The notes under the pieces were generated by a model. The model searched no databases, was not told the DNA's origin, and worked only from the letters and a program-made list of their open reading frames with translations. A program made the position numbers and the translations under genes. From NCBI GenBank assembly GCA_963666625.1, contig OY762925.1:3541748-3605747 (forward strand): a stretch of DNA of 64,000 nucleotides, given 5' to 3'. Source of the stretch: Arenicellales bacterium (GTDB lineage Bacteria; Pseudomonadota; Gammaproteobacteria; Arenicellales; JAJDZL01). Of this stretch, positions 8,486 through 35,334 are shown in pieces (the stretch's first letter is position 1; each line of letters opens with the position of its first letter).

Positions 8486-8503
8486 ATGGCGAATGTTCTC
8501 TCT

Positions 8504-9688
8504 TCAGTTTCTGGCCGCAATTTTCAGAGCCTGTGAAGGGTTTGATGTTCCATCGCCCGTCTCGTTGCCCGGTTCGAACAAAACGCCTGACCAGAGTCCC
8601 TCCACCGAGTTAACCCCAAGTTGTGCGATTGCGGTATCGATATCCTGCGCAAAACAATCCAGAAGCGTCGACAGACCGTTTTTTCCACCGGCTCCCAAGG
8701 CGAACAGAACCGGTCGTCCGAGCATGACGAAATCCGCACCGAGTGCCAGTGCCTTCACCACGTCCTCGCCGTTGCGAACACCGCTGTCAAACAACAGCGG
8801 CATGTCGGTACCAAGGGCTTCGCGAACCCGCGGCAGGAGATCGATGGCCGCTGGGACACTGTCCAGTTGCCGACCGCCATGACTTGAAACGTAGACGGCA
8901 TCGGCACCCGCGTCTCGGACACGAACCGCATCCCAAGCACAGGTGATTCCCTTGACAATGAGGTTTCCTTTCCATGTTCTTCGTAACTTATCTAGGAAAT
9001 CCCAATCCGCCCCTGCTCGGCTTGCGTCCCGAACGAAGTTATCGCCTTTACCAATGTTTTTAGGAGAAGGGACACCCGCCGCCAGAGTCGACAGGGACCA
9101 GCGTGGATGGGTCGCAAAATCAAGGAAAGATGTCAGGGTCAGTTTGAACGGAACATTGAATCCGTTTCGCTGATCGCGAACCCGCCGCGAAACCTGCGGA
9201 ACATCGACAGTCAGCACCAAGGTGTCGTAACCGGCATCACCCGCCCGGTCCACTGCTACCAGCGACGATTCTTCTGATTGTCCATAGTACAGTTGAAACC
9301 AGGCGCGGGACTCCGCCCACTCTCGCATGTCTTCAAGCGTGCTTGACGCAGCAGAAGAGACACACACCGGTATGGCAAGCCTCGCCGCCGTCTCGGCGAG
9401 GATGCGGTCTGCGCCCGGACAGACCAGATTACACATCCCCATGGGTGCAATTCCGAAGGGAACACCGAACTTCTGCCCCAGAATCTCTGTCGCGAGGCTT
9501 CGCGATGCGACATTCTCCATGACGCGCGGCTGTAGGCAAATTTCGTCAAACCGCGCTTCATTTCGCCTCTTTCCGACCTCTCGCCCTGCCGCGCCATCGA
9601 TGAAATCGAACACCAGGCGCGGCAACCGCCGTTTCGCCAATCGGCGCGCATCCTCAGTAGAAAACAATTTTGTCCTCGTCGACAGCAT
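8504..9688 (-). CDS. FMN-dependent alpha-hydroxy-acid oxidase/dehydrogenase (LldD / glycolate oxidase family)
   Basis: 394 aa. Family blocks PFGIAPMG, VLTVDVP, VSSHGGRQLD, DSGVRNGEDVVKALALGA. Confidence 0.8.
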   Translation of the reverse strand: MLSTRTKLFSTEDARRLAKRRLPRLVFDFIDGAAGREVGKRRNEARFDEICLQPRVMENVASRSLATEILGQKFGVPFGIAPMGMCNLVCPGADRILAETAARLAIPVCVSSAASSTLEDMREWAESRAWFQLYYGQSEESSLVAVDRAGDAGYDTLVLTVDVPQVSRRVRDQRNGFNVPFKLTLTSFLDFATHPRWSLSTLAAGVPSPKNIGKGDNFVRDASRAGADWDFLDKLRRTWKGNLIVKGITCAWDAVRVRDAGADAVYVSSHGGRQLDSVPAAIDLLPRVREALGTDMPLLFDSGVRNGEDVVKALALGADFVMLGRPVLFALGAGGKNGLSTLLDCFAQDIDTAIAQLGVNSVEGLWSGVLFEPGNETGDGTSNPSQALKIAARN

Positions 9689-9764
9689 CCAGTCTCCAGT
9701 TTCTTATGAGCTACAATTCCGGAAAACCATACAAAGAGGCTCTCCTACTACGACCAATCGAAAA

Positions 9765-10041
9765 CTACGCAGCACTGACTTGACGACGTGCTTGCGCGAG
9801 TTCATAACTTGCCTGAAGACGCATCCACTGATCAGCTGTACCCCAACCGATATTTTCCAATGCAATTGCCATTTTCGCTGAAATCCCAGCCTTACCATTT
9901 AAAAGACGTGATTAACGTCCCTCGCTCACAACCGAGACGTGATGCCGTCTCCGTTACACTCCACTCCGATTCGTTCATGTTTTCACGAATCAACTCACCA
10001 AGATGAGGCGGATTGAAAATCGGCTTTACTCGAATACTCAC
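9765..10041 (-). pseudogene. HigA/VapI-type XRE antitoxin gene with a frameshift
   Basis: GTG-started frame gives MSIRVKPIFNPPHLGELIRENMNESEWSVTETASRLGCERGTLI. It then shifts frame near 9905-9915 and continues RLLNGKAGISAKMAIALENIGWGTADQWMRLQASYELAQARRQVSAA. The span is 277 nt, not a multiple of 3. Confidence 0.6.
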
Positions 10042-10282
10042 GCCTATTCCTCCCAAAATACTTTATTGTACCGAGTGCTCAAAGCTCAATGACAATGTTT
10101 TAGTGGAGAATATCGGGGCAATTGCTACCGCTTGCCACCATTTGCAAGTTACTATCGTTTTGGGTTTTACCAATCACGAAATTGCAGTGAGTAAAAAGTC
10201 AGTAGTTGTACTACAAAGGAAATGAAACCAAATCCGAAACCCTTACCCATCAAAGGTAATTTCGTCGATTGGCCGGCATTTT

Positions 10283-10450
10283 TTACTGGTTCTGGAGGGT
10301 TTTGAGAATTTTTGTCCTCTTTTCGATTTCAATCATTTCGTTCAGTGTTTTACACACTTTCGAAGATTGAAATAGCTCATTCGCATCAACGTATTGTGAT
10401 CCTCTTGATGTGACATAGACTTTCGGCTTGTCGTCAGATATTTTTTTCAT
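10283..10450 (-). CDS. Small hypothetical protein (55 aa)
   Basis: ORF only (MKKISDDKPKVYVTSRGSQYVDANELF...). No recognisable motif. Start moved to the internal ATG. Confidence 0.25.
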   Translation of the reverse strand: MKKISDDKPKVYVTSRGSQYVDANELFQSSKVCKTLNEMIEIEKRTKILKTLQNQ

Positions 10451-10528
10451 TGAACCGCTTCTCGAGTAGTTAGTCAATTCTTGTACAATACAGATTCCTC
10501 GCCTACATCTCGTTGGTACCGCACTGTT

Positions 10529-10813
10529 TTACATAGCGATTCGCTCAAGAGGTCGGATGCCGCTAACATTGATACTTGCGTTCGCAACGTCATAGTTATT
10601 TTGTAAATTAAGCCAAAATTGAGGCGTCGATCCAAAAAAGCAGGACAGACGCAATGCTGTATCTACAGTAATCGGAGAAGTTTCCTTTACTAATCGTTCA
10701 ATACGACTACGCGGTACACCTATTCGTTTAGCAAGCTCGCCGGCACTCATCTGCAGCGGTATAAGAAATTCAAACTTCAAAATTTCGCCTGGATGACATG
10801 GTTGTTTTAGCAT
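10529..10813 (-). CDS. higA: HigA-family antitoxin (XRE-type HTH)
   Basis: MLKQPCHPGEILKFEFLIPLQMSAGELAKRIGVPRSRIERLV...FWLNLQNNYD is the typical HigA layout. It lies 16 nt downstream of the higB-like frame. The ORF-track TTG start at 10843 was rejected in favour of the ATG at 10813. Confidence 0.8.
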   Translation of the reverse strand: MLKQPCHPGEILKFEFLIPLQMSAGELAKRIGVPRSRIERLVKETSPITVDTALRLSCFFGSTPQFWLNLQNNYDVANASINVSGIRPLERIAM

Positions 10814-10829
10814 GACCAGAACGTCCTCC

Positions 10830-11078
10830 TCAGTGATAATCAATTATTTCAACATCCGTCGGTCCTTGATCTGTCCAAACAAAACAAATTCTCCACTGAT
10901 CATTAATGCGAATAGAGTATTGCTCTTTGCGATCTCCTTTCAACTTCTCAAGACGATTGCCAGGAATGACGCGAAGATCATCTAAAGAATGGGCTGAATT
11001 GAGCGCAGTTATTTTTCGTCTTGCATTTCTGAAGACTTCTATGGGGAATCCTTTCTTCGGATAACCTTCAAGTACGGA
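10830..11078 (-). pseudogene. higB: HigB (plasmid-maintenance-killer / RelE-superfamily) toxin gene lacking its 5' end and start codon
   Basis: Open frame ...[78 protein letters not shown]. It is bounded upstream by an in-frame TAA (11079-11081). There is no in-frame ATG or GTG, and about 8-10 N-terminal codons are missing. Confidence 0.65.
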
Positions 11079-11126
11079 TTAAATCAATCTGCCTTTTGTA
11101 GATCTTATCATTATCATCGCTTCAAT

Positions 11127-11145
11127 TGTATCATGTGATGATACA
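11127..11145. promoter_or_regulatory. Palindrome TGTATCAT-GTG-ATGATACA upstream of the higBA module (candidate operator)
   Basis: 8-bp perfect inverted arms with a 3-nt spacer, about 50 nt upstream of the higB-like frame. TA operators are typically palindromes in this position. Confidence 0.3.
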
Positions 11146-11265
11146 TGTTTGGCAAATTTCGTACGATGTTGTTGAATTGACTTTATTCATCAATGACCAA
11201 ATCCGACAATAGACAACGATAAACGATCAAGCCAGTTTTGAGAGGATGGGATACGAATGTGCGGA

Positions 11266-11490
11266 TCAATTTGTGCCTGCTACATCAAGCGTTTGGGCAA
11301 ACTGCTGCAGAAACACAACCGCAGGCTTCTCAACAGCCAGCACCATCATATGCGCGCCGCCTGACACCTGGAACACTTCCCCCGCTCCTATATTTCGTCC
11401 ATCTGTCGCTGGATGCGTCCGGGAGCCGAAAATTTTTCAATTTCGCAACGGCTGCTGTCAGGTCGACCACCGGACCCGGTCATTTTTCAC
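11266..11490 (-). pseudogene. Possible alpha/beta-hydrolase C-terminal gene fragment (frameshifted)
   Basis: Minus-strand frames read ...VVDLTAAVAKLK / KIFGSRTHPATDGRNIGAGEVFQVSGGAHMMVLAVEKPAVVFLQQFAQTL*. The GGAHMMVLAVEKP...FL block resembles the catalytic-His end of alpha/beta hydrolases. The patch is locally GC-rich within the AT-rich island. Confidence 0.3.
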
Positions 11491-11580
11491 ATTCTGATAT
11501 ATGATTATGGTAGTTTTCTGGCAGACACTGGATAGCCAGCATTGATGTATGCTGATCGCCTCAGGAATACTGAAGACTCT

Positions 11581-13065
11581 ATGGCAAAAACTTCCGAAAA
11601 TAACAAAGCTCCATTCTTATTGGAGCGCGTGATGAAGCTGATGGCAGGGACAGAGTGGCAAGAGCGTATGCAAAGCCACTTTTCGGAATTCTACATGCCT
11701 GCGGCGCGGCGCAACAAAATGACTGGCGTAGAATATTTGGTCAAAGCAGGGGTGGAACGATTGGCGTTCATTTCCCGATTTGTGCTTGACGACTTTATGA
11801 CACGCTGGTACGGCAAGAATGGGGAGTTGAATCTTGTTCACAACTTCATACGAAATATTTCTGGGATCGACAAGGATTTCCACCTTGCCCAAGAATTTGA
11901 GATATACGAATTGATAGCCGAATCCAGACCCACTATGTATGAAGTCGTTGATGTTACGCGGGGAGTGAGGACCGTATTGAGAGACATGATATACGGCGGC
12001 GAAGACATCGTTATCGAAGAAACTGTCACGCTCTCAGAAATGACTGAACTATGGCAATGTCTCGCTGGCAGAGCAGTTCTGCACGATGACGTGCCGTTCT
12101 TATCGCCGAACTTTCTACCTTTCGATCAACAAATGGCAGGCGATTTCTTGGACAAGCTTGAGAGGATCATTGAAGAAAAGCTAAATTCGGCCGGTGCTGA
12201 CGAAAAATCGGGAAATACAACCTCCCAAGTCACTCGGGAAGATATTCTTGCAGGTCTGCCAATGTCTCAGATGTTAGCGGATTCCTGGAATGCTGCGATA
12301 GACGAGCGTGGTGGAATGCGATTTGGACTGCCGCCTCCGACTCTGGGCACAGTAGAGGGAGGAATTGTTGAGATCTGTGAGGTCACGTTTCGCGCCAGTG
12401 ACGAACTTCAACGGATCGCCGAGAGACTCGACGCGATTCCATCGCTTTCGAGAATTACGGGTGAAGATCGCAAGTGGAATTGGAATTTACCCAGAGAGGG
12501 GTTGGCCGAATACTTGCAGGCCATAGTGGAGTCCGAGGATCACGAGTTGTCGGACGAACGATCCGAAGTTAACTCCAATCACGAGGAATGGCTCGGCATT
12601 GTCGAACTCAATCCCAGAACGCTCACGCTATGGGTTCCCTCGAAGCCAAGAGCCGAAGCCGGTGAAAAGCTTTTAATAAGCTGCCTGGGTGATCTGGTAA
12701 CAAATCCGATGCTGACCTACACGAATTCGCATGAAGAAACCAAAAAAATATTGGATTCGTTAAAGCCGGGGTTGAACGAACTTTCGATGCCGGAGATTTT
12801 CACAAGCATGCACGGCTATTTTCGCAACCTGTACTACGGCAGTGCGATCGACATCCCTTCACGAGAGTATGACGATATGACTCCGCGTGAAATGGCACTT
12901 TCGTCCCGTGAACGACGAAAGGCGCTCGAATGGCTGAAAATGCGCGAGTGTACGGACCGTGTTATCTGCCGAGAGCATGGGTTGGATTTGTATGATTTCA
13001 CTTGGATGTGGCAGGAATTGGGGTTTAGTACCAGCCAGAGCCACGCTGATGATTCTGAGCAATAG
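11581..13065 (+). CDS. Hypothetical protein (about 494 aa), no recognisable domain
   Basis: Long uninterrupted ORF with a coding-like composition. Start taken at MAKTSENNK (the ORF-track start is 11542). No motif I can assign. Confidence 0.5.
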   Translation: MAKTSENNKAPFLLERVMKLMAGTEWQERMQSHFSEFYMPAARRNKMTGVEYLVKAGVERLAFISRFVLDDFMTRWYGKNGELNLVHNFIRNISGIDKDFHLAQEFEIYELIAESRPTMYEVVDVTRGVRTVLRDMIYGGEDIVIEETVTLSEMTELWQCLAGRAVLHDDVPFLSPNFLPFDQQMAGDFLDKLERIIEEKLNSAGADEKSGNTTSQVTREDILAGLPMSQMLADSWNAAIDERGGMRFGLPPPTLGTVEGGIVEICEVTFRASDELQRIAERLDAIPSLSRITGEDRKWNWNLPREGLAEYLQAIVESEDHELSDERSEVNSNHEEWLGIVELNPRTLTLWVPSKPRAEAGEKLLISCLGDLVTNPMLTYTNSHEETKKILDSLKPGLNELSMPEIFTSMHGYFRNLYYGSAIDIPSREYDDMTPREMALSSRERRKALEWLKMRECTDRVICREHGLDLYDFTWMWQELGFSTSQSHADDSEQ

Positions 13066-13123
13066 GGCGGGTGCTGTATATCGATGAATTTCTATCAGAT
13101 CTGATTTTACGTCCGCAGTAAGA

Positions 13124-13423
13124 CTAAAACTGTTTGTGTGCCTTACAAATTAATCGTGGTGACCACTTTCTTAACTCATCGAGGAATTGTTCTCCATCCA
13201 CCATATTTTGAACTGCAATATCTTCATCAACCTGTGCTGCTCTCATCTGCAGTACTTGCAATTTCAAGTTCTCGAACCGTTCGTAGTCTTCCACCGAAAT
13301 TACAACAGCAACAGCTTTTCCGTACCTATTAAATTGAACAGGAGTGCGTTGTGCCTTCAGCAGCAATGTTCCGAAATTGGTTTTTGCCTCATTGGCACTC
13401 AATGTCTCATGCATATTCATCAA
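13124..13423 (-). CDS. Phd/YefM-family antitoxin (no adjacent toxin gene)
   Basis: N-terminus ETLSANEAKTNFGTLLLKAQRTPVQFNRYGKAVAVVISVEDYERFENL is the classical Phd/YefM fold signature. The gene downstream is convergent, so no cognate toxin is present. Confidence 0.7.
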   Translation of the reverse strand: MMNMHETLSANEAKTNFGTLLLKAQRTPVQFNRYGKAVAVVISVEDYERFENLKLQVLQMRAAQVDEDIAVQNMVDGEQFLDELRKWSPRLICKAHKQF

Positions 13424-13559
13424 CCCTCTTTAATCGTTCGATTTAATCGATTCGTTCAATATAAACGGTTCGATCTAATTTTGTAATTTGATTCACTTGA
13501 ATACGTATTCGAAGTCCATGAATGGGTCTTCGAAATAACATCAAATGTATGGCTTGAGA

Positions 13560-13912
13560 TGAAGCACAAAAATCGCACGATGGAAAAATCTTTGCTCAGT
13601 TTGGTAAAGCGCTACACCAGTTCTCGGATTCAACCGTACCTTAAGTCACTCATCCTGACATCGGCCAACTATAATTCGTCGCCAAATACTCAATCTACAC
13701 GATCGCCCGCCTCGAAAACACGCCCTCCGAAAGAATTACCGAAAGCGGTTCGACTACCTTTTGAGTTCACCTTGTTGGATACTGCAGCTCCGCCTCTATA
13801 CCAACAAATTTCAGCTAAATCAGTTCAACTCCATCAGCTCGGTTTGAGCAAGAATTCTATTGCCGCAAAGCTGAATGTCGATGAAAAGACCGTATCCAAA
13901 GCAATTCGGTGG
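13560..13912 (+). repeat. Junction module C: decayed serine-recombinase 3' end fused directly to the conserved HTH 'tail' (no ssrA mimic)
   Basis: 13640-13758 aligns by eye with 34240-34346 of the intact recombinase (for example CTCGAAAACACGCCCTCCGAAAGAATTACCGAAAGCGGTTCGACTAC). 13759-13912 encodes [51 protein letters not shown], 42/51 identical to the tail at 17246-17414. The 141-aa ORF 13559-13984 is a chimera of these remnants. Confidence 0.65.
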
Positions 13913-13953
13913 ATAAATGAAATCTGGTATCACTCTTTTAGTGACTATTGCAA

Positions 13954-14585
13954 CTACGCATCGATCTTCAGATGTTGCAGGTAGTCCACAAGCGAGTGAA
14001 TTTCTGTACTTGGGTTTGGGTTGTTTGTTTTCCTGCCATCGTCAATTGTTCGTTGGGCATTCGCTTTTGCGTCTTCCAGTCGGTCCTCAAGATCCTGAAA
14101 CACCCACCCTGCCCTTTTTTGTAGTTTGGAATATGTTTCTTCAAATCTCTTACGCAATTGTCGGCTGGACTTGCCTTACCTGATCTTGCGTATGGCTTGC
14201 GGGTGTAGCCGAAATGCAGAAGCAACCAAAATTCAAAGCACGGCCACGACCGTGCCAGTTTTAGTTTATTTGCCTTGGCGAATGCACAGGCTTCATCATA
14301 TGTTGCATGCTCATCTCTGTCAAAGACACAAAAGACGATGTCGAATTTCTCTCCGAGATTCAGTTCCCTCTTCTGAAGGTCAAGTGCTGCATTCACTACG
14401 GTAATCGGGGCCGACCCTTCATTGACTACCACTACATCAGCTACATTTAGTCTGTACCGATTCCTAATCTCGATGAAGTAATACGGCTCCGTCTTCGCAC
14501 CTTCGCAGACAATGAGAACGCGGTTGTAGGATTCGCGATTCAGTAATTTCTGTTTTGAGAACTTGCGCGGTTTCCGCCTGGCCAT
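13954..14585 (-). pseudogene. RloB-like protein gene (AbiLii-like), frameshifted
   Basis: N-terminal frame MARRKPRKFSKQ...VLIVCEGAKTEPYYF... carries the RloB signature. The conserved C-terminal part (VFQDLEDRLEDAKANAQRTIDDGRKTNNPNPSTEIHSLVDYLQHL) lies in another frame (ORF 13954-14157). The switch is near the A6-GGG run at about 14095-14125. Confidence 0.7.
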
Positions 14586-14595
14586 AGTGAATCCA

Positions 14596-15840
14596 CTAAA
14601 AGCGCTGTTCGAAGAACGGCAACGCTCCATACCTGCCGCTCAGGTATGACCGTTCAAGATTTTCCAGCCCCTTGCGAGGACTGAATTCCGCTAGCGGGAA
14701 CAAACGAGTCTCTTGTTTTTCGTTACGCTCACAGAACCAAATCTGATCGCGACGAAACACGGCTTGGTTCAGAATCGATGTATCGTGAGTCGTGAAGACC
14801 AGCTGAGCACCTCTTGCGTTTAGCCGAGGATCATGGAACTGATCGACCAAGTATCTGACCAGCGCAGGATGAAGACTGGCATGCAATTCATCGAAGACGA
14901 TCACGTTCCCATTCTTCAGGCTGTCAAGCCATGGACCAGCCAAAGCGAAGATTCGTTGTGTTCCGTCCGATTCATCTTCAAGTTGCAACTCACTCGGGGA
15001 ACTATTACCAGTATTGTGGCTCAGTCGCAGTTCGGGAAATTTCTTTCCAGCCATCATATCCTCTAGATATGGACTCAAATCCGGGTCCATGTCTGTTTGA
15101 AGTTGTCGCGGTTGAAATTCTTTCTCCACAACATGGATATCCGCAATGCCGAAATCGGCTACATTCAGAAAGTCAACAATCTCACGCTTGCGTTGGTCGC
15201 GGCACCAAGACATTGAATATGAGTTTATCCAGCCTTGAGTGTCGGTCACTTTCAACCTCTTCTTGAACCAATTGTAGATCGGTCGTAATTGTTCGCTGTT
15301 TAATGAAACTGCGGTTGACAGATACAGCGCATCGGGTCGGGTCGCGCGTTGCCAGACTTTCTTATCTCCTGTGAGGTTGGGACCAAAATCCCATGCATTC
15401 TCTGTGCGCTCAAACAAAACCTGGAGACGCCCGCGGGGCCAAGCGAAGAGCCACTCGTCAATTATTTGATGGCGAGTAGCTCTGAATCCATACTGGTACC
15501 TGACTCCTTCGGCAATACATAAGACTTCCAGCATTGTCGCCTCGTTCTCATTATTAGGGTCCAGACGAAATGGGGTCACCGGCAACTCAGCAAGGTGTTC
15601 AGTCGAGCGGGTGACAATGTATTTCATCGCACCCAACGCGTTGACCAAATTGCTCTTGCCAGCGGCGTTCGGTCCGTAAATGGCGATTGAGCGCACAAGC
15701 GGTTCATTGCGCACATTTCCCGAGAGTTCGGGCTTGACCAGGTGCGTGTCGCGCTGCTCGTTTCCGCGACCCGCAACCAGATTCAGCCGCGCCTCGTCGC
15801 GAATGGATTTGAAATTTTCGACCGTAAACTCTACAAGCAT
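14596..15840 (-). CDS. AAA-family ATPase (AAA_21 / RloA / AbiLi-like)
   Basis: Walker A YGPNAAGKSN, Walker B VIVFDELHASLHP, and C-terminal FTTHD block. It sits immediately upstream of the RloB-like gene (10-nt gap). Confidence 0.8.
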   Translation of the reverse strand: MLVEFTVENFKSIRDEARLNLVAGRGNEQRDTHLVKPELSGNVRNEPLVRSIAIYGPNAAGKSNLVNALGAMKYIVTRSTEHLAELPVTPFRLDPNNENEATMLEVLCIAEGVRYQYGFRATRHQIIDEWLFAWPRGRLQVLFERTENAWDFGPNLTGDKKVWQRATRPDALYLSTAVSLNSEQLRPIYNWFKKRLKVTDTQGWINSYSMSWCRDQRKREIVDFLNVADFGIADIHVVEKEFQPRQLQTDMDPDLSPYLEDMMAGKKFPELRLSHNTGNSSPSELQLEDESDGTQRIFALAGPWLDSLKNGNVIVFDELHASLHPALVRYLVDQFHDPRLNARGAQLVFTTHDTSILNQAVFRRDQIWFCERNEKQETRLFPLAEFSPRKGLENLERSYLSGRYGALPFFEQRF

Positions 15841-16084
15841 GTGAAAGTCAATCTAATGCATGATTTTGGCATTATATGACAAAACTTGATTCTAAATTCA
15901 ATTCAGTGCCAACAGGAAGCGGAAAACAACTACCTTTGTCGACCTGTCCAATAGATTCATCAATTTATGTCAATTACTATAATCTTTCACTATTCCAAAC
16001 ATCTAATCCGACCCTTAACTCTTTTGTAAGCGGGAGTTAGACTATGAACTATTGATGATGAATCGAAGACTTTTAGAGATAACC

Positions 16085-16200
16085 ACACCACTGACCGATT
16101 TGCTGAGTGCGGACAATGGTGCGGATTCCTACCTCTGGTGGACTTGGACGGTAAGAATCCGCACCGTCGCTAAAGTTCCGATTCAAGTTTATTTGCTTGA
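16085..16200 (+). repeat. Junction module D: short, degenerate recombinase-3'/ssrA-3'-end mimic
   Basis: TGGTGGACTTGGACGGTAAGAATCCGCACCGTC (16136-16168) resembles the antisense tmRNA 3' end (TGGTGGAGGTGGCGGGAATCGAACCCGCGTC). The preceding about 27 nt weakly resemble the recombinase 3' end. There is an 11-bp inverted repeat, GGTGCGGATTC (16118-16128) / GAATCCGCACC (16155-16165). Confidence 0.35.
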
Positions 16201-16218
16201 CTCATTTAGAATCCAAGT

Positions 16219-16641
16219 CTATGACTGATTGAACGGATTGACGATCGTAAGTTTTTCGATAATTTGACCGTCTTGTAAGTCTTCGCTGTAAAGGATTCTA
16301 CACTTGGCTTCAAGTGCAGCGGCCACAATTAGACTATCGTAAAACGAAAATCCGTAACGCCGCATAATTTCAAGCCCAAAGCGATAGTGTCGACCTGTCG
16401 GATTGACGGACCATAAAGGAACCAACACGTCTTCAAGAAATTGATGCGACTGTGCTGCTGTCGCACCTAACTTTCTCGTGATTACATTGATCGTCTCCTG
16501 AACAACCTGATAACTGATGTGCCCAATTCCTTCTCTCACTGCCGATTGAATCAAATCAACAGATCGTGTGCGTTTTTCACTATCTGTTTCATCAAATACG
16601 TATATGAATACATTTGAATCAATAAAGTACTTATCGTTCAT
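16219..16641 (-). CDS. vapC: PIN-domain ribonuclease toxin (VapC)
   Basis: 140 aa. YFIDSNVFIY (first acidic residue), SYQVVQE, FYDSLIVAAAL and YSEDLQDG fit the PIN acidic quartet. It overlaps the upstream antitoxin gene by 11 nt. Confidence 0.8.
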   Translation of the reverse strand: MNDKYFIDSNVFIYVFDETDSEKRTRSVDLIQSAVREGIGHISYQVVQETINVITRKLGATAAQSHQFLEDVLVPLWSVNPTGRHYRFGLEIMRRYGFSFYDSLIVAAALEAKCRILYSEDLQDGQIIEKLTIVNPFNQS

Positions 16642-16855
16642 TCATTTCTTCTCGAGAGAATTTACGGCCACCAGAAAAAATACTAGCTTGCAGTTCGCGA
16701 ATCGTTTCAATAGTTCGCTCACTTTTCTGTTCGCGCTGTACATAATTTTCCAACCACATTCGGAATTGTGCATTCAATGTCGTATTCTCAGTTGTTGCAC
16801 GTTGTCGCGCTTTTTCGATTAATTCAGCATCTGCACTAAGCGTTATGTTCTTCAT
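16631..16855 (-). CDS. vapB: VapB-type antitoxin (small DNA-binding protein)
   Basis: 74-aa ORF immediately upstream of, and overlapping, vapC (MKNITLSADAELIEKARQRATTENTTLNAQFRMWLENY). The assignment rests mainly on position and size. Confidence 0.6.
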   Translation of the reverse strand: MKNITLSADAELIEKARQRATTENTTLNAQFRMWLENYVQREQKSERTIETIRELQASIFSGGRKFSREEMNER

Positions 16856-16989
16856 TATTTCATCTCAAATTTAGTTACACGAAAATACTATACACTAATC
16901 TCGTGTTATTTTCACACGAAATTCATCGACATTTAGACTTTACCCTTCATCTTCTCTCGCTCAATTACTCGGACATAGTGTCGAGAATA

Positions 16990-17414
16990 GCACTCGCCGA
17001 ATTTTTGAAGATTACATTGTTAAAAAAATGTTGCGCAATCGAACGAAGTTCTCAGACATTTCGCAGACCCGATTGCATTCGAGGCGGTTTGGCGTGATAT
17101 CGGGAAGCCCTGATTCACCGCCCAAAGCTCGGTCAACGCAATTACCCTTTTCAAGAGCACACCCCTGAAAAAGATACGGAAGCGGTTTGACTAGATGGTG
17201 TTGGTGGACGTGGTCGCAACGTATTCGAACCCAGTCCGTACTGTATTTTGAGTTCACTTTGTTGGATACTACAACTCCGCCTCTCTACCAAGATATTTCA
17301 ACCAAATCTGTCCAACTTCATCAATTGGGCATGAGCAATAGATCAATTGCTACAAAATTAAAAGTTGATGAAAAGACTGTTTCAAAGGCAATTCGATGGG
17401 CAAAAGGACAATAA
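16990..17414 (+). repeat. Junction module B: decayed recombinase 3' end + decayed ssrA 3'-end copy + conserved HTH 'tail' ORF
   Basis: About 16990-17201 aligns with the last ~210 nt before ssrA in the intact recombinase, with 1-nt indels. 17202-17240 (TGGTGGACGTGGTCGCAACGTATTCGAACCCAGTCCGTA) mimics the antisense tmRNA 3' end. 17246-17414 encodes [55 protein letters not shown]. Confidence 0.7.
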
Positions 17415-17641
17415 AATTATTCTGCTATCCTGATTCTATGTTCCGAGACACAGCCAAACCATGTGGAAAAAGGAATAAATGGAAATCATGCTCGCGCTCA
17501 ATCAGTCAAGCAGAAATTGCTGTATATTACGGGTAAAGTAAACTAAAGATAAGTTGGTCATAACCTACTACAATATTAGTCTCCATAAGCTATCTACTAG
17601 CGTCATTTTCACTAATACGATTCGAACTGAAATACCCGTAC

Positions 17642-18250
17642 ATGGCCAGAAAAACATTTATTTCCTATAAGTATAGTGAATCTCAAAGTCTACGGGACGA
17701 TATCATTACCGCCCTTGGTGCAGATGCCACTTACTATCAAGGCGAAACCTCCAACTCACCAGACTTGACCGACGAATCAACTGAACTCATAAAGAAAAAT
17801 CTCACTGATATGATGTACGACACATCAGTCACTATAGTCATCGCTTCCCCCAATATAAAGAGAAGCAATTGGATTGACTGGGAAATAGAATATTGTCTGA
17901 AAGAATATAGCCGGAAAGGACGAACTTCAAAGACGAATGGTGTCGTAGGAGTAATTCAAAAACATAATGGCAGTTATGATTGGTTGGTAACCAAGTCAGT
18001 ACAGCCGGACGGGTGTACCTTGCGAACAATTGACTCTTCAATGCTGTATCCGATCATAACAAATAACCGCTATAAGCGAAATGGTCGCGGATACGCCTGC
18101 GATACCTGTAATTCACACGACCAGTTGGAAGGTTCGTACATCTCACTGATTGACCAGGAAGATTTTCTTGCGGATCCTGAGAAATATATTGAAAATGCCT
18201 ATCATAAGTCGGAAAATTCTGATCAGTTTGAACTTGTCAAGCAAAGGTAG
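17642..18250 (+). CDS. TIR-like protein, DUF1863/ThsB-type (202 aa)
   Basis: RKTFISYKYSESQSLRDDI at the N-terminus, TSVTIVIASPNIKRSNWIDWEIEY (conserved W..E block), then a Cys-containing C-terminal extension. Confidence 0.65.
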   Translation: MARKTFISYKYSESQSLRDDIITALGADATYYQGETSNSPDLTDESTELIKKNLTDMMYDTSVTIVIASPNIKRSNWIDWEIEYCLKEYSRKGRTSKTNGVVGVIQKHNGSYDWLVTKSVQPDGCTLRTIDSSMLYPIITNNRYKRNGRGYACDTCNSHDQLEGSYISLIDQEDFLADPEKYIENAYHKSENSDQFELVKQR

Positions 18251-18374
18251 TGACCACATGTTGTCGGCAACACTCCTCAATAACTCGATAATCGTCTATT
18301 TCCTAACTCGCTCAAAACTTGTCCTTGATTTCTTTCGTGCGGTGAATGAAACCGCTCCATTGTAGGAGACTATC

Positions 18375-19532
18375 TTGAGTACATATGAGTTCGCGATTCT
18401 TGGTTGGATATTTCCGCGAAAACGCGACTTAATCGTTAGTGCAATTGAAAAATCTGTGACTGACTTCGGGCTTGTTATTGGTCAGGACGTAATAATTCAT
18501 GATGCCAAAAGCGTGCTGGAACGAGACAAATCTGCTGCATTCGTAGCTGTCTATATTGGAGATTCCTGCCATTTTGATGCAGAAATAGTGGAACAGTTAT
18601 TGCAAGAGAGTGTCCCAATAATTCCAACCTTGGGGCCTAAAGACGATTTCAACACCCATATTCCCGAATTCTTACAAGTTCTGAACGTGCATCGCCGTAG
18701 ACACGACGACCCATCCATGACCGAGCTAACTTCTGCCATGCTCGAAGCCGTGGGATTGCTGCGCCGTCAACGACGGGTTTTCATAAGCTATCGCCGTGTC
18801 GAATCTCAAACCGCGGCATCACAGCTTCATGATTTGCTCAGCGCGCGAGGCTTTGATGTCTTTCTGGACACTCATGATATAAGGCCCGGGGACCCTTTCC
18901 AGGATATGTTGTGGCACCGTCTTTGCGATTCAGATGTGATGATTATGCTGGATACTCCAACCTATTTGGACAACAAGTGGACCCGGCAGGAATTTGCGCG
19001 TGCATTGACTAAGGAAATTCATATTCTTCGTGTGGTTTGGCCGGAACATCAGCCAAGCAGACTGACGGAACTAGCCAAAACTATATATCTGGACTCCAAT
19101 GATCTGGTGGGCGTAGGCGGTCCAATACGTACTCAAAAGGCCGACGAAATCGCTCTTTCTGTTGAGCGCCTTCGCAGTCGTAGCATCGCTTCTCGCTACT
19201 TGTTAATAACCGGTCGTCTACGCGCGGACGTACAAAAGTTTGGTGCCACCATCGAAGGCATAGGGGCTCACCGCGCAATTGTCGTCCGTCTACCTGATGA
19301 TCGTCGAATATGGGCATACCCTGTTATAGGCATTCCTACAGCCAAGAATCTGAACGACATTGAAGATAGTACGGCTCCCAACGTTGGGCAAGGCGAGTTG
19401 CCGGTGCTCCTCTATGACGATATCGGCATCGACAGAAGCTGGAGCAATCATCTAGACTGGCTAAATGAGAAAGTCAAAACAGTCGAAATGGTGAAGATTT
19501 CCGAAGCCGCATGGTCACTTGCGACTTGGTGA
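18375..19532 (+). CDS. Multidomain TIR-domain protein (385 aa; unknown N- and C-terminal domains)
   Basis: Central block RRVFISYRRVESQTAASQLHDLLSARGFDVFLDTHDIRPGDPFQDMLWHRLCDSDVMIMLDTPTYLDNKWTRQEFARAL is a classical bacterial TIR domain with a candidate catalytic Glu. The TTG start is preceded by AGGAG at 6-nt spacing. Confidence 0.8.
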   Translation: MSTYEFAILGWIFPRKRDLIVSAIEKSVTDFGLVIGQDVIIHDAKSVLERDKSAAFVAVYIGDSCHFDAEIVEQLLQESVPIIPTLGPKDDFNTHIPEFLQVLNVHRRRHDDPSMTELTSAMLEAVGLLRRQRRVFISYRRVESQTAASQLHDLLSARGFDVFLDTHDIRPGDPFQDMLWHRLCDSDVMIMLDTPTYLDNKWTRQEFARALTKEIHILRVVWPEHQPSRLTELAKTIYLDSNDLVGVGGPIRTQKADEIALSVERLRSRSIASRYLLITGRLRADVQKFGATIEGIGAHRAIVVRLPDDRRIWAYPVIGIPTAKNLNDIEDSTAPNVGQGELPVLLYDDIGIDRSWSNHLDWLNEKVKTVEMVKISEAAWSLATW

Positions 19533-19538
19533 GGCCAA

Positions 19539-20162
19539 ATGACAGAAGCGATATTTCTCTCAGCCAGTGTTCCCGACCCGAAACGCGGTCCCCAATACGC
19601 GGTAACAGCCGATACAGTCGCAATTTCTTCGGCGGTTTCTGCATTGGTGCACGTAATTCTGGGCCGCCGTATTCTTGTATGGGGAGGACATCCCGCAATT
19701 ACACCAATGATTTGGCTTATCGCGGAAAACATCGGTGTAGATTACGGAAGTTGGGTTCATCTATATCAATCCAAATACTTCTCTGATGAATTTCCCGAAG
19801 ATAATGAGCGTTTTCAGAATGTTACGTATACGAAAAATATTGAAAACGATCGTAACAAGAGTCTGCTTTCCATGAGAGAGCAGATGCTTTCCGCCCGTCC
19901 TTTCGCGGCCGCTGTATTCATTGGTGGTATGGATGGCATCCTTGAAGAATTTGAAATATTGCGCCGATTACAGCCTAATACTGACGTAGTTCCAGTCATT
20001 TCTACTGGTGGCGCTACAATTGAACTGGCGAAACGATTGCCGAATATCGATCCAGATCTCACAAATGACTTTGACTATATCTCTGTTTTCCATCGCCATT
20101 TGAAAATTTCTTTCAAAGAAGGTCGTTTCAATCGTCCGACTGATAAGCTCGATACGACGTAG
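19539..20162 (+). CDS. Stand-alone SLOG/LOG-like Rossmann-fold protein (207 aa)
   Basis: IFLSASVP (beta1), VWGGHPAITPMI, and FIGGMDGILEEFE (GGxxGxxEE, the LOG/SLOG nucleotide-binding signature). The start is 6 nt after the TIR gene stop, with GAGG overlapping that stop. Assignment is by motif only. Confidence 0.5.
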   Translation: MTEAIFLSASVPDPKRGPQYAVTADTVAISSAVSALVHVILGRRILVWGGHPAITPMIWLIAENIGVDYGSWVHLYQSKYFSDEFPEDNERFQNVTYTKNIENDRNKSLLSMREQMLSARPFAAAVFIGGMDGILEEFEILRRLQPNTDVVPVISTGGATIELAKRLPNIDPDLTNDFDYISVFHRHLKISFKEGRFNRPTDKLDTT

Positions 20163-20288
20163 AAGTGGCTGTTCCTACTACCGAACTCTGATACCTGTCA
20201 GGTATTCACCTTAATCTGCCAGCCAGCATCAAAAAATCGCTTATGCACAAGCACAGTAGCGTCTTCACTATCCCAGATTCACTACTAA

Positions 20289-20786
20289 CTAATGCTCATT
20301 TCTAATGGCTATAGCCTCTTCGACGGCATCTGACAAATAAGTTTGAATCCAATTGTATCGTTCTCGGCTGTTTCTGCCTTTGGGATCGTAGCATTTCACA
20401 ATAGACGACAACTTCTTCCCAGTATTCCCATAACCAATATTATCAAATGGATTCACACCTTTTTTCGATGTGTTTCCATAGCTGTTTTCGAGTCCATGGA
20501 TATGAATGCCAACCACACCCATCCCATCATCCCAGGATTTAATGATCTCGTAATTGATCCACTTCCTTCCAGCGGTTTCCGTTCCCACCAAAACCACAGT
20601 ACAGGACCGTCCATGTATTTGACCAGCAATCCACTTCTTGATCGCATTTTCACCGCCTTTGGTTATGCTCTCCCAGTCGTTGTCCGTTGCCGGACGATTG
20701 CCTTCTATCACACCAATATTACGCACTTGACTCACTCGCCAATTGTCCGGAGCATAGTGAAAGCTGTAAAACACTCTTCGCGCCAT
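20289..20786 (-). CDS. ThsB-like TIR-like protein (DUF1863 type, 165 aa)
   Basis: RRVFYSFHYAPDNWRVSQVRN, SCTVVLVGTETAGRKWINYEI, GVVGIHIHGL and KKGVNPFD parallel the layout I recall for Bacillus Thoeris ThsB. Confidence 0.75.
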   Translation of the reverse strand: MARRVFYSFHYAPDNWRVSQVRNIGVIEGNRPATDNDWESITKGGENAIKKWIAGQIHGRSCTVVLVGTETAGRKWINYEIIKSWDDGMGVVGIHIHGLENSYGNTSKKGVNPFDNIGYGNTGKKLSSIVKCYDPKGRNSRERYNWIQTYLSDAVEEAIAIRNEH

Positions 20787-20795
20787 TGTCCACCT

Positions 20796-21218
20796 CTACA
20801 TTGTTAGAATTCCTAATAGTACAAGAACAACTATCAACAGTGAGCCGTAAAATCTGTAAACTGACCATGACCACGCAATATCCCACACTGAGGCGACATT
20901 TTTTTCATGAGGCTCATAATCAAGCTCAAACTCCTTGACACCCTTTTTTCCCAACACTGCAGAATAAAGCTCAATATAGCATTTCTCTAAGTGAAGGTAT
21001 CTCGCGTCCATTATCCAAAAGGCGATCACAGGGACACATCCTCCTAACACTATAAGCCAGTGAGGATCATCTGACAATCCCGAAAACATGAATACCGCTG
21101 TGACTAAGGACACAGCCCATGTTTTCATTTGCATACTGTTGCTCGCCATACGTAAAACGACACCCTGAATCAATTTCAGATGCTCTAATGTCGCTTGCTT
21201 CTCGTTACTCATGTTCAC
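20796..21218 (-). CDS. Small membrane protein with three predicted TM helices (140 aa), candidate effector
   Basis: Hydrophobic segments WAVSLVTAVFMFSGL, WLIVLGGCVPVIAFWIM and FYGSLLIVVLVLLGILT. It sits 9 nt upstream of the ThsB-like gene, with an AGGTGG RBS between them. Confidence 0.6.
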   Translation of the reverse strand: MNMSNEKQATLEHLKLIQGVVLRMASNSMQMKTWAVSLVTAVFMFSGLSDDPHWLIVLGGCVPVIAFWIMDARYLHLEKCYIELYSAVLGKKGVKEFELDYEPHEKNVASVWDIAWSWSVYRFYGSLLIVVLVLLGILTM

Positions 21219-21659
21219 TACTTACTATTGAGCATCAGCACTATTAAAGGATAATTTGCACCCCAAAAAGACTCGGTCAAAAAACCTGTACAAATCACGA
21301 CGGTACAACTTGACCAACCCTCTTTTGTTGGAATTGCAATAATGATCCCGGTCAAATTCCGTACTTCAAAGCAAGTCTCCTTCCGAATGGACTACTTCAT
21401 CAACCAATTGTATCAGCACTAGTGGCATTGCATATCACTCAGAATCGTTATCGAACAGAAGGCATCAGCGAAGTATCCTGATTCCAGGAACAAGATGCTA
21501 TCCCATCCAAATTCACCTGAATTGTTAAAATAACCCGGTTATTGATAAATTTTTTGATAATCAAGCCACAATAGTTTGTTTCAAGCCGATGTTGGTTGCA
21601 AATTGAGCTAGTGAGTAGTAAAGAGTTAAGTGATTGACGCTCCACTGAAATTACATCAA

Positions 21660-22601
21660 ATGAGTAAAACAAATTTAACATTCGACCGGTGCGCATTGTG
21701 TGCTGAATCATCCGATTTGCAATCGAGCCACATAATCCCAAGTTTTGTCTTCAATTGGCTTAAAAATACCTCCGCGACAGGCCATTTCCGCTCATCCGAG
21801 AATCCCAATCTGCGTGTACAGGATGGCTTAAAGCCTCGAATGTTGTGTAAGGAGTGTGAACAACTGTTTTCGTCGTGGGAAAAGAAATTTTCCGAAATAT
21901 GCTTTGTTCCGCTCAATAGTGGAAACATTCGCAATATTTCCTATGGACCCTGGATGCTGAAATTCGCAACCTCGGTTTCTTGGAGAGTATTACGTTACTT
22001 TAAAGCTAATGGATACCTTACTGAGTATCCCGAACACATCAGCACTCGTATCAATCATACCCTTGACGAGTGGTATAGATTTCTTCTGGGCGATACGCCC
22101 AATCCAGGGAAACATGGGCAACACATGTTCTTGGGAGATGTTATCGCTGGCACGTCCATCGCAAATACACCGGCCAATATCAGTCGTTATCTTGTTCGAG
22201 CAATTGATTGTGATGTAGCCTTCACCCAAGATTCAGCAATTACCTATGCAAAGATGGGTAAATTTGTCTTATTCGGATTTATAAAGATACCGCATCCACG
22301 TCAATGGGAAGGAACAAAACTACACGTTCGAAAGGGGTCATTCGGCGAAAAGAATATAGAACTGCCCAGCACCGTTGGTGAATATTTATTTGATCGTGCT
22401 ATGCGGGCAGCGAACAGCAATTCGAAAATCTCGACACGACAACGAGCAAGGATATCGAAATCCTACAAGCAAAACCTCGACCGCGCGGTTCAAAGCGAAA
22501 CGTTACGTGCTTTACATCAAGATGTCCTTTTGTTTGGAAATAAAGCCTTTGAGATCACACAACCCGAATCGGGTGAACTGGAAATTAAGGAAATCATATA
22601 A
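21660..22601 (+). CDS. Cys-rich protein with N-terminal HNH-like/zinc-finger motif, unknown C-terminal domain (313 aa)
   Basis: CALCAESSDLQSSHIIPSFVF ... LCKECEQLFS gives a CxxC...H...CxxC spacing reminiscent of HNH nucleases. It ends 4 nt before the hsdM ATG. Start set at the ATG (MSKTNL) rather than the GTG at 21630. Confidence 0.45.
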   Translation: MSKTNLTFDRCALCAESSDLQSSHIIPSFVFNWLKNTSATGHFRSSENPNLRVQDGLKPRMLCKECEQLFSSWEKKFSEICFVPLNSGNIRNISYGPWMLKFATSVSWRVLRYFKANGYLTEYPEHISTRINHTLDEWYRFLLGDTPNPGKHGQHMFLGDVIAGTSIANTPANISRYLVRAIDCDVAFTQDSAITYAKMGKFVLFGFIKIPHPRQWEGTKLHVRKGSFGEKNIELPSTVGEYLFDRAMRAANSNSKISTRQRARISKSYKQNLDRAVQSETLRALHQDVLLFGNKAFEITQPESGELEIKEII

Positions 22602-22605
22602 CATT

Positions 22606-25080: not shown

Positions 25081-25101
25081 CGAGACCTTACACAGGCAGT
25101 C

Positions 25102-29467: not shown

Positions 29468-29469
29468 AG

Positions 29470-30183
29470 ATGGAAACCATCCAACTCGGGGAAATTTCCA
29501 TCAATTTCACCCGCAAGAATGTCAAACATGTTCACCTATCAGTGTACCCTCCAAGCGGGCGCGTAACGCTTGTTGCGCCAAAAGGAACACGCAGTGAGGT
29601 AGCCCGAGCGTACGCAATCTCCAAGCTCGGATGGATCCGCAACCAGAACGCTAATATGAGGGGGCAGTTGCGCGAGACACCGCGCCAGTATGTCGAGCGT
29701 GAGAGCCACTACCTTTGGGGAAGACGATACTTGCTAACAGTTAGCGAGAAAGAAGCGAAACCAATCGTCCGCCTCAGTCACCGTACTATCATGCTCACCG
29801 TGCGTCCTGGAAGTAGTGATGCGAAACGTGCAACAGTTATACACGAATGGCACAAGTCACTTTTGCACGAAGCGATACCAGAACTAATCTTGCTGTGGGA
29901 GGCGAAAATCGGTGTAAATGTGGAAAACTACTTCCTGCGGCGCATGAAAACGAAGTGGGGTAGCTGTAATTACCGAACTCGTACCATAAGACTCAACACA
30001 GAACTTGTGAAGAAACCAAAGCACCTGCTTGAGTATATAGTAGCTCATGAAATGTTGCATCTAATTGAGCCTACGCACAGCAAGCGATTCTTTGCGCTGT
30101 TGAATGAACATTATCCGACTTGGCGTGAAGCTAAGGCAGAACTGAACGAGCTACCGCTATCTGCGGAGTCATGGAAAGTCTAA
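29470..30183 (+). CDS. YgjP-like (DUF45 / M48-type) zinc metallopeptidase
   Basis: HExxH motif in IVAHEMLHLIEPTHS, plus KTKWGSC. This family is commonly encoded next to type I R-M genes. It starts 2 nt after the hsdR stop. Confidence 0.75.
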   Translation: METIQLGEISINFTRKNVKHVHLSVYPPSGRVTLVAPKGTRSEVARAYAISKLGWIRNQNANMRGQLRETPRQYVERESHYLWGRRYLLTVSEKEAKPIVRLSHRTIMLTVRPGSSDAKRATVIHEWHKSLLHEAIPELILLWEAKIGVNVENYFLRRMKTKWGSCNYRTRTIRLNTELVKKPKHLLEYIVAHEMLHLIEPTHSKRFFALLNEHYPTWREAKAELNELPLSAESWKV

Positions 30184-30302
30184 ACAACCAATCTTGTCAC
30201 CAAATGCAGACACATTCTCGGCTCTGGCCCACAGCCGAGACTGAAATCGCAGCAATAGATATTTAAACCATAAAACAAGGCAAACAATAGTCCCTACTGT
30301 CC

Positions 30303-32531: not shown

Positions 32532-32533
32532 TT

Positions 32534-35320: not shown

Positions 35321-35334
35321 GACTGTATCCCTTG

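Follow-up and report, generated by a model that had tools for sequence, protein, structure and literature searches.

Tandem islands at ssrA, the gene for transfer-messenger RNA (tmRNA), have been described in Dehalococcoides, and in these islands the serine recombinase gene dsiB always overlaps the attachment (att) site (McMurdie et al., 2011; PMC3146451). It was speculated in the same study that dsiB is complete only on the circle, or is made complete by an island supplying "the requisite 3' gene fragment". The Dehalococcoides islands also have a 20-bp repeat, a T-loop insertion and a module of six genes, among them one for a second, small serine recombinase (DsiA) and RecF-, ParB- and Mom-like genes (McMurdie et al., 2011). 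In this study, we analysed a window of 64,000 nt from an Arenicellales bacterium (positions 3,541,748 to 3,605,747 of contig OY762925.1, assembly GCA_963666625.1; "the window" always means this whole stretch), in which integrative islands are stacked next to ssrA and the ssrA-proximal island, E1, carries the gene for a large serine recombinase (LSR). We think it likely that an LSR family targeting the 3' end of ssrA built this array, that the attP of these elements lies within the recombinase gene and that integration detaches a helix–turn–helix (HTH) domain, here called the tail, from the encoded enzyme. This reading draws on the anatomy of the att sites, the continuity of the reading frame, the purifying selection on the tail and its location on the element's distal end, the attP-like internal junctions and the presence or absence of E1 in related strains. 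Comparable ssrA stacks are already known in Dehalococcoides; a detached HTH tail and a spread over many phyla were not found described in the literature searched.

Attachment sites of E1

The ssrA gene (tag ANDDNYALAA; ARAGORN; Rfam RF00023, 195.8 bits) occupies 34354-34717 on the minus strand, and the E1 recombinase gene (32701-34389) sits on the plus strand directly past its 3' end. The short form that is encoded in the integrated state has 562 aa and the domain order of an LSR, namely an N-terminal resolvase catalytic domain (Pfam Resolvase, PF00239, 5e-28) followed by a recombinase domain (Recombinase, PF07508, 3e-25) and then a zinc ribbon (Zn_ribbon_recom, PF13408, 3e-8); an exact look-up of this protein returned no record. 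Its open reading frame (ORF) terminates within ssrA, and the final nine codons, RWRESNPRP*, are the antisense of the tmRNA acceptor/T-arm, which at the same time forms the B' half of the attachment site.

For LSRs, it has been established that the motif read by the zinc ribbon lies at positions 16-24 in the half-sites of attP and at positions 11-19 in those of attB (Rutherford et al., 2013; PMC3783163). The sites of E1 have this geometry. In the attR (junction A; 34336-34378, plus strand), which consists of P arm, GA and B' arm, GGTTCGACT is found at 34336-34344 (positions 24-16), GA at 34359-34360 and AATCGAACC at 34370-34378 (positions 11-19), and the crossover at GA is located 5-6 nt from the ssrA 3' end. 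The other end of E1 lies in the attP-like junction B (17184-17231, plus strand), where a decayed older P arm, GGTTTGACT..., and a centre GA at 17207-17208 are followed by the intact E1 P' arm (17208-17231), with ATTCGAACC at 17223-17231. When the left part of junction A is joined to the right part of junction B, an attP of GGTTCGACTACGTTGCGT TGGTG-GA-CGTGG TCGCAACGTATTCGAACC is reconstructed, and this element site of about 48 bp (GGTTCGACTACGTTGCGTTGGTG-GA-CGTGGTCGCAACGTATTCGAACC) lies within the recombinase reading frame. In their outermost 18 nt, P and P' are inverted repeats at 16/18 positions (aligned by eye, with no tool score), with the dyad centre in the GA of TGGTGGA, and both arms have A(G/T)TCGAACC at positions 16-24, whereas AATCGAACC of the ssrA T-arm occupies positions 11-19. 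The site is therefore, like a typical LSR attP, an imperfect palindrome of ~50 bp with a non-palindromic 2-bp centre, and the zinc-ribbon motif is 5 bp closer to the centre on the attB side.

This geometry is shared by other members of the family. Counting the window, 44 ssrA-adjacent junctions with a recognisable P-arm motif were compared, from metagenome-assembled genomes (MAGs) assigned to many phyla; the P motif GGTTCGAAT at positions 24-16 together with the centre GA was present in 43/44, and the TCGAACC of ssrA started at position 13 in 42 of the 44. In the distal junctions, the DNA of the P' arm keeps the core GTG GA C.CG..CGCAA.G.ATTCGAACC, although the host ssrA ends differ, in MAGs labelled Arenicellales, Solirubrobacterales, Acidobacteriota, Gemmatimonadaceae and others, and where a distal junction has a recombinase stub on its left, the stub ends in an inverted repeat of the P' arm.

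A strain without E1

With the exact SmpB sequence of the window (smpB, 34841-35320, minus strand) we found a related 45 kb contig, L114 (ENA ERZ21830300), which provided the comparison of strains that the preliminary description of this locus had proposed. The reverse complement of L114 is 99.3% identical to 7787-17213 of the window and then runs straight into ssrA, which is matched at 100% over 375 nt. The junction reads ..GGTTTGACTAGATGGTGTTGGTGGA joined to GGTGGCGGGAATCGAACC, or in a longer reading ..GAAGCGGTTTGACTAGATGGTGTTGGTGGA joined to GGTGGCGGGAATCGAACCC, and is that of the older recombinase stub of junction B with the genuine ssrA. L114 thus lacks E1 (17208-34359, 17,152 bp) with a precise junction, and it also lacks the ssrA-like sequence found in junction B of the window. 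The two ends of E1 have a block of 9 nt in common, GTTGGTGGA, which includes the predicted GA. It follows from this comparison that E1 is a discrete unit of insertion or excision and that the ssrA-like sequence travels with it. The site that E1 entered or vacated has as its left half a P arm and not the host B arm, and is thus a P-B' site; a virgin attB was not obtained in a close relative, the E1-free strain L114 retaining the older segments.

In the preliminary description, the ssrA-like sequence of junction B had been taken for a mimic of the ssrA 3' end, which in a classical tRNA- or tmRNA-gene (tDNA) island would be the displaced and decayed old end of ssrA, the tail then being the first or last gene of the element. 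Such an origin would not be without precedent, as islands with tyrosine integrases at tRNA and tmRNA genes regenerate their target in this way (PMC4383910), as the Dehalococcoides islands are bordered by 20-bp direct repeats of ssrA (PMC3146451) and as the mimic does resemble an ssrA end (TGGTGGA.GTGG...TCGAACC..GTCCGT). However, although the flank shared with L114 is 99.3% identical, the mimic differs from the ssrA end of L114 at many positions and by a 5-nt insertion, and it is absent from L114, where stub B abuts the genuine gene. In addition, the P' core CGCAA.G.ATTCGAACC is conserved across hosts of many phyla with different ssrA ends, the mimic repeats the P arm in inverted orientation, with the 5-bp offset of an LSR, and only about 9 nt are common to both ends of E1. 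We therefore rejected a displaced ssrA end as the source of the mimic, which is contradicted by the L114 junction, the symmetry of the arms and their conserved geometry, and a classical tDNA island must be considered very improbable as an explanation of the locus as a whole. The mimic is the P' half of the E1 attP, and its resemblance to ssrA is accounted for if the same protein domain has to read both.

Two further observations on L114 concern the history of the locus rather than E1. To the right of ssrA (within window positions 34361-45284), identity between L114 and the window is 94% and then 81-87%, while the SmpB protein is identical, and the 99.3%-identical left flank includes a host-like gene for an FMN-dependent dehydrogenase (8504-9688). 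Either a recombination breakpoint in or close to ssrA or the recent transfer of the left flank itself would be in line with this pattern.

The HTH tail is encoded in frame with the recombinase

At junction B, the reading frame is continuous from the TGG TGG codons of the recombinase through the P' arm into the tail. The P arm codes for ..GSTTLRWW and the P' arm for (W)TWSQRIRT, and these are followed by ~20 linker codons and an HTH of ~45 aa. The stretch at 17202-17414 (plus strand, with TAA at 17412-17414) hence has the make-up of the detached 3' part of the E1 recombinase gene, with P'-arm codons, linker and a three-helix HTH. Two kinds of C-terminus are seen in homologues of the recombinase: in one, ..RWW is followed by R(W/R)R(E/G)SNPRP, the antisense of ssrA, and in the other by T(W/R)(S/T)QRIRT and the same HTH tail in a single frame. 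With a degenerate attP pattern, 29 metagenome sites were found, and the ORF piece extended at least 73 codons past the start of the P arm, which is enough for the tail, in 21 of them. Uninterrupted fused ORFs have 581 codons in locus L096, 560 in L102, 544 in L108 and 417 in both L088 and L110; that of L102 corresponds to residues 65-617 of the reconstructed fusion and is interrupted by the contig end alone. The whole of recombinase and tail (residues 1-617) is present in L003 with two frameshifts, on a long-read contig labelled 2x, and residues 24-615 are present in L005 with one frame change near the tail, on a contig labelled 4x. As a separate observation, the independent recombinase copies of L096, L108, L023, L074 and L053 are truncated N-terminally, with a recurrent breakpoint at about residues 95-120, and have lost the region of the catalytic serine.

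It could be argued that the tail is an independent small HTH gene, for a regulator or an Xis-like protein, which has its own start when integrated and whose frame matches that of the recombinase incidentally. Gene callers do predict ORFs of 60-130 aa at the tail, some copies, for example in L002 and L006 (..RTMSSLHF), have an in-frame ATG, and the short recombinase form carries all standard LSR domains. There is, however, no conserved start codon: copy B has no Met before the HTH (linker QSVLYFEF), and the same is true of L004 and most GC-rich copies. Furthermore, in the sequences inspected every subfamily has an open frame between the att core and the HTH, the spacing of core and YQ motif looks the same in the different subfamilies, and long fused ORFs do exist. 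An independent gene thus seems rather unlikely to us. The preliminary description had placed the tail immediately beyond the recombinase gene across attP on a circular form; the adjoining position was right, but the tail continues the recombinase frame and lacks a conserved start codon.

Between the tails of junctions B and C, the rates of nonsynonymous (dN) and synonymous (dS) change are 0.13 and 1.0, with a dN/dS ratio of 0.13, and other pairs of tails give ratios of 0.07-0.32, which indicates that the tail is under purifying selection. A further alternative is that tails and stubs are inert relics, the long form being ancestral, the short form alone being functional and the conservation of the tail reflecting recent descent. 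This would fit with the lack of start-to-stop long forms in our tail-profile search (see Discussion) and with the truncation of many array tails, as in copy D of the window, L014, L026 and L097. Yet dN/dS is no higher than 0.07-0.3 even where tails have diverged to a dS of 1 or more, and the tail persists across subfamilies whose recombinases are only about 45-60% identical, in MAGs assigned to different phyla. Neutral evolution would hardly produce this, and we give the relic explanation a slim chance.

Structure prediction is consistent with a folded DNA-binding domain behind a flexible connection. In the AlphaFold2 model of a 267-aa homologue (P0009), a long helical coiled-coil region is followed by attP-encoded residues 170-214 that are disordered (pLDDT, the predicted local confidence, <50) and by a tail of three helices (residues 219-266), in which the means of 10-residue blocks are 93-96 from residue 221. 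A Foldseek comparison of this C-terminal model with the PDB gave no significant match for the whole model; the tail was superposed locally on the DNA-binding domains of DeoR (7bhy, 42-44 aligned columns, root mean square deviation 1.6-2.1) and NarL with E-values that are not significant. Pfam matches of the tail are likewise weak (HTH_SB 3.5e-5, and GerE, HTH_23 and HTH_38).

The tail had already been proposed as a marker of an element's distal end, and this is borne out by other genomes. A hidden Markov model (HMM) of the tail gave 35 matches in the fetched loci, and 35/35 share the strand of the recombinase; a tail upstream of the recombinase and within 10 kb of it was seen in about 25 loci, which is the positional link between tail and recombinase that was to be sought outside the window.

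Older segments of the array

Four related junctions, A, B, C and a weaker D, had been recognised by eye, and repeat, tblastn and HMM comparisons place all of them where they had been reported. Pairwise alignment revealed two direct repeats, one of 142 nt at 73% in the 3' end of the recombinase (17022-17163 versus 34172-34313) and one of 159 nt at 79% in the tail (13759-13917 versus 17246-17404), and the tails of B and C are identical at 42/51 positions, as had been counted (82.35% over 51 aa by tblastn). Similarities arising by chance or from low complexity might have been suspected for copy D, which is short and gave weak first tblastn E-values (0.003). The two repeats, tail E-values as low as 1e-44 inside the window, the P'-arm pattern, which occurs once in the window and in 0/100 shuffles, and independent homologues in metagenomes and genomes all speak against this, and its probability is as good as nil.

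In line with the ~200 nt that had been noted, B and C retain just the final ~150-200 nt of a recombinase gene. Stub B (17022-17207, plus strand) covers about residues 492-553 and is frame-shifted by a 1-nt deletion, as seen from the alignment and a three-frame translation; residues 492-538 are matched by tblastn at 17024-17164 (E 4e-11). Stub C (13561-13758, plus strand) covers residues 484-550 (tblastn 13561-13761, E 1e-9) and keeps the P-arm motif GGTTCGACT at 13747-13755. It is directly followed by tail C (13759-13921, plus strand), in which the HTH part is conserved while the P' arm and the attP core are missing; a deletion of ~50 nt (between GACTA and TTTTGAG of B) has taken out the inner part of the P arm together with the centre and the P' arm. 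In this copy, TTT TGA G closes the recombinase frame exactly at the junction, and the tail follows in the +1 frame. A programmed +1 frameshift was considered here and rejected, as C is a deletion derivative without att core and the intact junctions are in frame.

Junction D (16079-16210, plus strand) consists of a recombinase stub of 20 aa, ..TTPLTDLLSADNGADSYLWW, an attP-like palindrome and the first ~25 codons of a tail, WWTWTVRIRTVAKVPIQVYLLDS, which is cut by the 3' end of vapC. The palindrome is intact, with 16-nt arms (16118-16133 and 16150-16165) that are 94% complementary and a centre GA at 16141-16142, and the tail HMM matches 16136-16210 (E 6e-5). Two Arenicellales genomes (L008 and L084) have intact recombinase genes whose 3' ends match 16079-16162 at 83.7% identity, and D belongs to a second subfamily, the arms of which also occur in L008, L084, L006 and L004. 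The A-type arm GGTTCGACT (peptide GSTTLRWW, motif GGTTCGA) and the D-type arm GGTGCGGATTC (peptide GADSYLWW, motif GGTGCGGAT) are thus found together in one array, and hybrid D/A junctions are present in L006 and L004 as well. Between B and D, the segment is A-type on its right and D-type on its left, and in the segment between D and C this is reversed. Because of these mismatched ends, the visible segments are not intact elements, and more deletions or integration events are implied than the four junctions would suggest. The successive integration of related serine-recombinase elements at ssrA, with the older genes reduced to att-proximal stubs, had been proposed before and is directly supported by the structure of the E1-free strain; more events are implied than the at least three, possibly four, that had been given.

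The older segments contain the AbiL-like and vapBC genes that had been noted as cargo. AbiLi (414 aa) and AbiLii (220 aa) are encoded between C and D (13968-15840, minus strand; PADLOC AbiLi 1.7e-94 and AbiLii 8e-24; Pfam AAA_21 and RloB), and vapC (PIN domain, Pfam E 2e-13) with its small upstream partner between D and B (16219-16855, minus strand). Further left, an ORF of 507 aa (11542-13065, plus strand; 506 aa in L114) has no match in Pfam or PADLOC and is flanked by toxin–antitoxin-like modules, an HTH_3 antitoxin-like gene at 10529-10843 and Phd/YefM at 13124-13423. No additional copy of tail or P' arm was found left of 13.5 kb by tblastn and a pattern scan of the window. Window positions 9766-10039 are 85.8% identical to an HTH_3 gene that adjoins a junction in L002 (9403-9675); in the window, this gene is broken into two short ORFs (9704-10056, minus strand) beside the dehydrogenase gene. 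This hints that the array reaches left at least to about 9.77 kb. The region from 13.5 to 34.4 kb is a tandem array of integrative islands, with its start probably at about 9.8 kb.

Related elements in other genomes

The family is represented by 79 genome loci, in MAGs whose assignments cover ten phyla or more. Besides tmRNA genes, members of the family are found at genes for tRNA-Met (L007, L009 and L058), tRNA-Ala (L016, L026, L027, L028, L047, L073 and L080), tRNA-Glu (L035, L042 and L051), tRNA-Val (L053) and tRNA-Ser (L081), where the recombinase ORFs end at the 3' ends of the opposite-strand tRNA genes and mostly overlap them. The family thus targets tDNAs in general, apparently via the T-loop motif. 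Its smallest elements (L026 and L039) are about 2.7 kb long and consist of the tail, a gene for an HTH_17-like protein (see below) and the recombinase gene; in the larger elements examined (E1 and L006), cargo lies between the tail and the HTH_17-like gene. The closest relatives occur in Arenicellales MAGs, and in L006 the recombinase is 87% identical, the tmRNA tag is the same and the region right of ssrA is syntenic. In L024, the full-length recombinase gene (10001-11656) ends in ..RWWGCCNVLVRA* at a distance of 5.3 kb from ssrA (tmRNA 16996-17383), which seems to reflect an insertion between the two.

Core module and cargo of E1

The recombinase gene forms a core module with two other genes. 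A small ORF of 55 aa abuts the recombinase start (32534-32701, plus strand) and has tblastn matches in the same position in L006, L003, L009, L014 and L058. Upstream of it, a perfect 20-nt inverted repeat, GATCTATAATAAGAGTAATA / TATTACTCTTATTATAGATC, overlaps a TATAAT box (32489-32531); its core TATAATAAGAGT is conserved in L006 and L003, and the repeat is a possible promoter or operator for the small ORF and the recombinase gene. The third member encodes a protein of 193 aa with a weak N-terminal HTH_17 domain of the excisionase type (30303-30884, plus strand; Pfam E 0.006). By tblastn, >50 loci, which are assigned to many phyla, have this gene a short way upstream of that for the recombinase; a PDB sequence search with the protein gave no match. 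From its domain and position, the HTH_17-like protein is a candidate directionality factor or regulator, and the more conventional candidate when compared with the tail. The serine integrase of phiRv1 uses an Xis-type factor.

The cargo of E1 (17415-30302) was identified with Pfam and PADLOC, in agreement with the TIR and restriction–modification set that had been described. It comprises three ThsB-type TIR proteins, a SLOG protein, a PDC-M50A/B pair, a type I restriction–modification system (hsdM, hsdS and hsdR) and a YgjP-like peptidase. Leftward from the recombinase gene, the order is the 55-aa ORF, DUF2806 and small ORFs, the HTH_17-like protein, the YgjP-like peptidase, the type I system, PDC-M50A/B, SLOG and the TIR proteins. 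The adjacent genes at 20289-21218 (minus strand) match a candidate defence pair, PDC-M50A (2e-30) and PDC-M50B/ThsB (3e-66). No ThsA was recognised in the window, despite the three ThsB-type TIR proteins and the SLOG protein.

Discussion

Sequence and comparison show that crossover at GA parts the recombinase body, which stays by ssrA and ends in RWRESNPRP*, from the P' arm and the HTH tail. The tail moves to the far end of the element, and the nine ssrA-antisense codons take its place. According to the mechanism that we propose, a long form of the enzyme with the HTH would therefore be encoded only by a P-P' junction, either on the excised circle or between the elements of an array, and the short form whenever the element is integrated. 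New elements would enter on the ssrA side, from which it follows that internal junctions are attP-like and combine an older P arm with a newer P' arm and tail; the older recombinase genes, being no longer needed, would then be deleted down to stubs. The long form would be made and used after excision, and the loss of the tail on integration may alter the activity or regulation of the enzyme and so act as a self-limiting switch that senses the state of the element. The preliminary description had raised the possibility that the tail is an excision directionality factor; since the tail joins the enzyme only after excision, this role is unlikely, and the HTH_17-like neighbour would be the better candidate for an excision factor. 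Furthermore, the E1 reaction turns a P-P' and a P-B' site into sites of the same kinds, so that the identity of the sites alone cannot set its direction. This leaves room for the suggestion that the recombinase senses the integration state through the structure of its own gene, with integration truncating the enzyme and thereby switching off or redirecting its activity. We offer this part of the model tentatively and regard it as possible rather than probable.

Several points weigh against our interpretation of the tail as a functional part of the recombinase. We recovered no intact long form, from start to stop, from a high-quality assembly, and the longest fused ORFs are cut by a contig end or lack the first ~100 residues. 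A search of 1.84 billion representative proteins with a tail profile gave 1135 clusters at E <= 0.001, and the best 150 of them were all 59-296 aa long, although clustering at 50% identity could hide long forms. No circular form, transcript or protein has been observed; terminal overlaps were absent from the contigs L001-L005, and the longer attP-bearing metagenome contigs had no meaningful ones. As the geometry of attP is fixed, the in-frame state counts as a single property that the family has inherited and not as a series of independent observations, and the conservation of GSNSLRWW and WTRTQRIRT may come from constraint on the DNA site rather than from protein function. The short form has every domain that LSRs are known to need, and the tail may be dispensable. 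Lastly, E1 entered or left a P-B' site, and canonical LSRs reject the pairing of attP with P-B', which our model leaves unexplained.

Serine integrases are valued in genome engineering since the direction of the reaction is set by the identity of the sites and a separate directionality factor. In the family described here, the attP lies inside the integrase gene, so that recombination itself edits the enzyme, and islands accrete at P-B', a type of site not accepted by canonical integrases. Should the two forms of the enzyme have different activities, directionality would be controlled in a new and genetically hard-wired way, and this would answer the question left open in 2011 for the ssrA islands of Dehalococcoides. 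Such a control would be independent of discriminating attP and attB from attL and attR, and it may be needed for insertions into P-B' sites. If the zinc ribbon reads the near-universal T-loop motif, this would explain why, in many phyla, the family has been retargeted between tmRNA genes and those of several tRNAs, and it would be a candidate for a broad-host integration tool. In the window, the family carries defence systems, which makes it a vehicle for the turnover of defence islands.

Among the known systems with which E1 can be compared, Islander-type tDNA islands differ in that no tyrosine integrase was present among the scanned ORFs of our locus and in that the mimic is a P' arm and not a displaced fragment of the target. 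The "suicidal" tyrosine integrases of SSV-type archaeal elements are more alike, as their attP is located in the integrase ORF at a tRNA-gene-like sequence and integration splits the gene (PMC7253208; PMC8371274). However, the E1 enzyme is by its Pfam domains a serine and not a tyrosine recombinase, and whereas the SSV split disrupts the integrase gene itself, E1 loses only a C-terminal accessory HTH, and the catalytic and known DNA-binding domains remain in one piece. In the myxophage Mx8, attP reportedly lies in the 3' part of int, and integration is said to convert intP to intX with a changed C-terminus (work of Magrini, Youderian and colleagues from about 1999); the Mx8 integrase is said to be a tyrosine recombinase with different targets, for which a detached folded domain has reportedly not been described. 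To our knowledge, the attP of the model serine integrases has not been described as lying within the integrase ORF. Apart from the 2011 speculation, our literature search gave no description of the HTH tail or of an LSR gene that extends across attP, nor of an ORF-embedded LSR attP with the canonical motif offset or a tDNA-targeting LSR family of many phyla.

With the canonical LSRs of A118/LI, Bxb1 and phiC31, E1 shares the set of domains, an attP that is an imperfect palindrome of ~50 bp, the non-palindromic dinucleotide and the motif offset (PMC3783163). It differs from these phage enzymes in that its attP is embedded in coding sequence, that the target is the conserved T-arm/acceptor end of tmRNA or tRNA genes and that the site of its integration has a P arm as the other half, which is not a pairing that canonical integrases accept. 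By published description, there is also a likeness to the Dehalococcoides islands and DsiB, with which our locus shares integration at ssrA, tandem islands, an ssrA-proximal LSR ORF that runs over the att site into ssrA or the neighbouring island, and islands without an integrase between the repeats. In contrast to Dehalococcoides, the two ends of E1 have just about 9 nt, GTTGGTGGA, in common, the crossover being 5-6 nt from the ssrA 3' end, and Pfam scans of E1 found none of the DsiA, RecF-, ParB- and Mom-like genes, the neighbours of the E1 recombinase gene being those for the HTH_17-like protein and the 55-aa ORF. The 3' gene fragment that was postulated for dsiB is, in the elements described here, identified as a conserved HTH domain.

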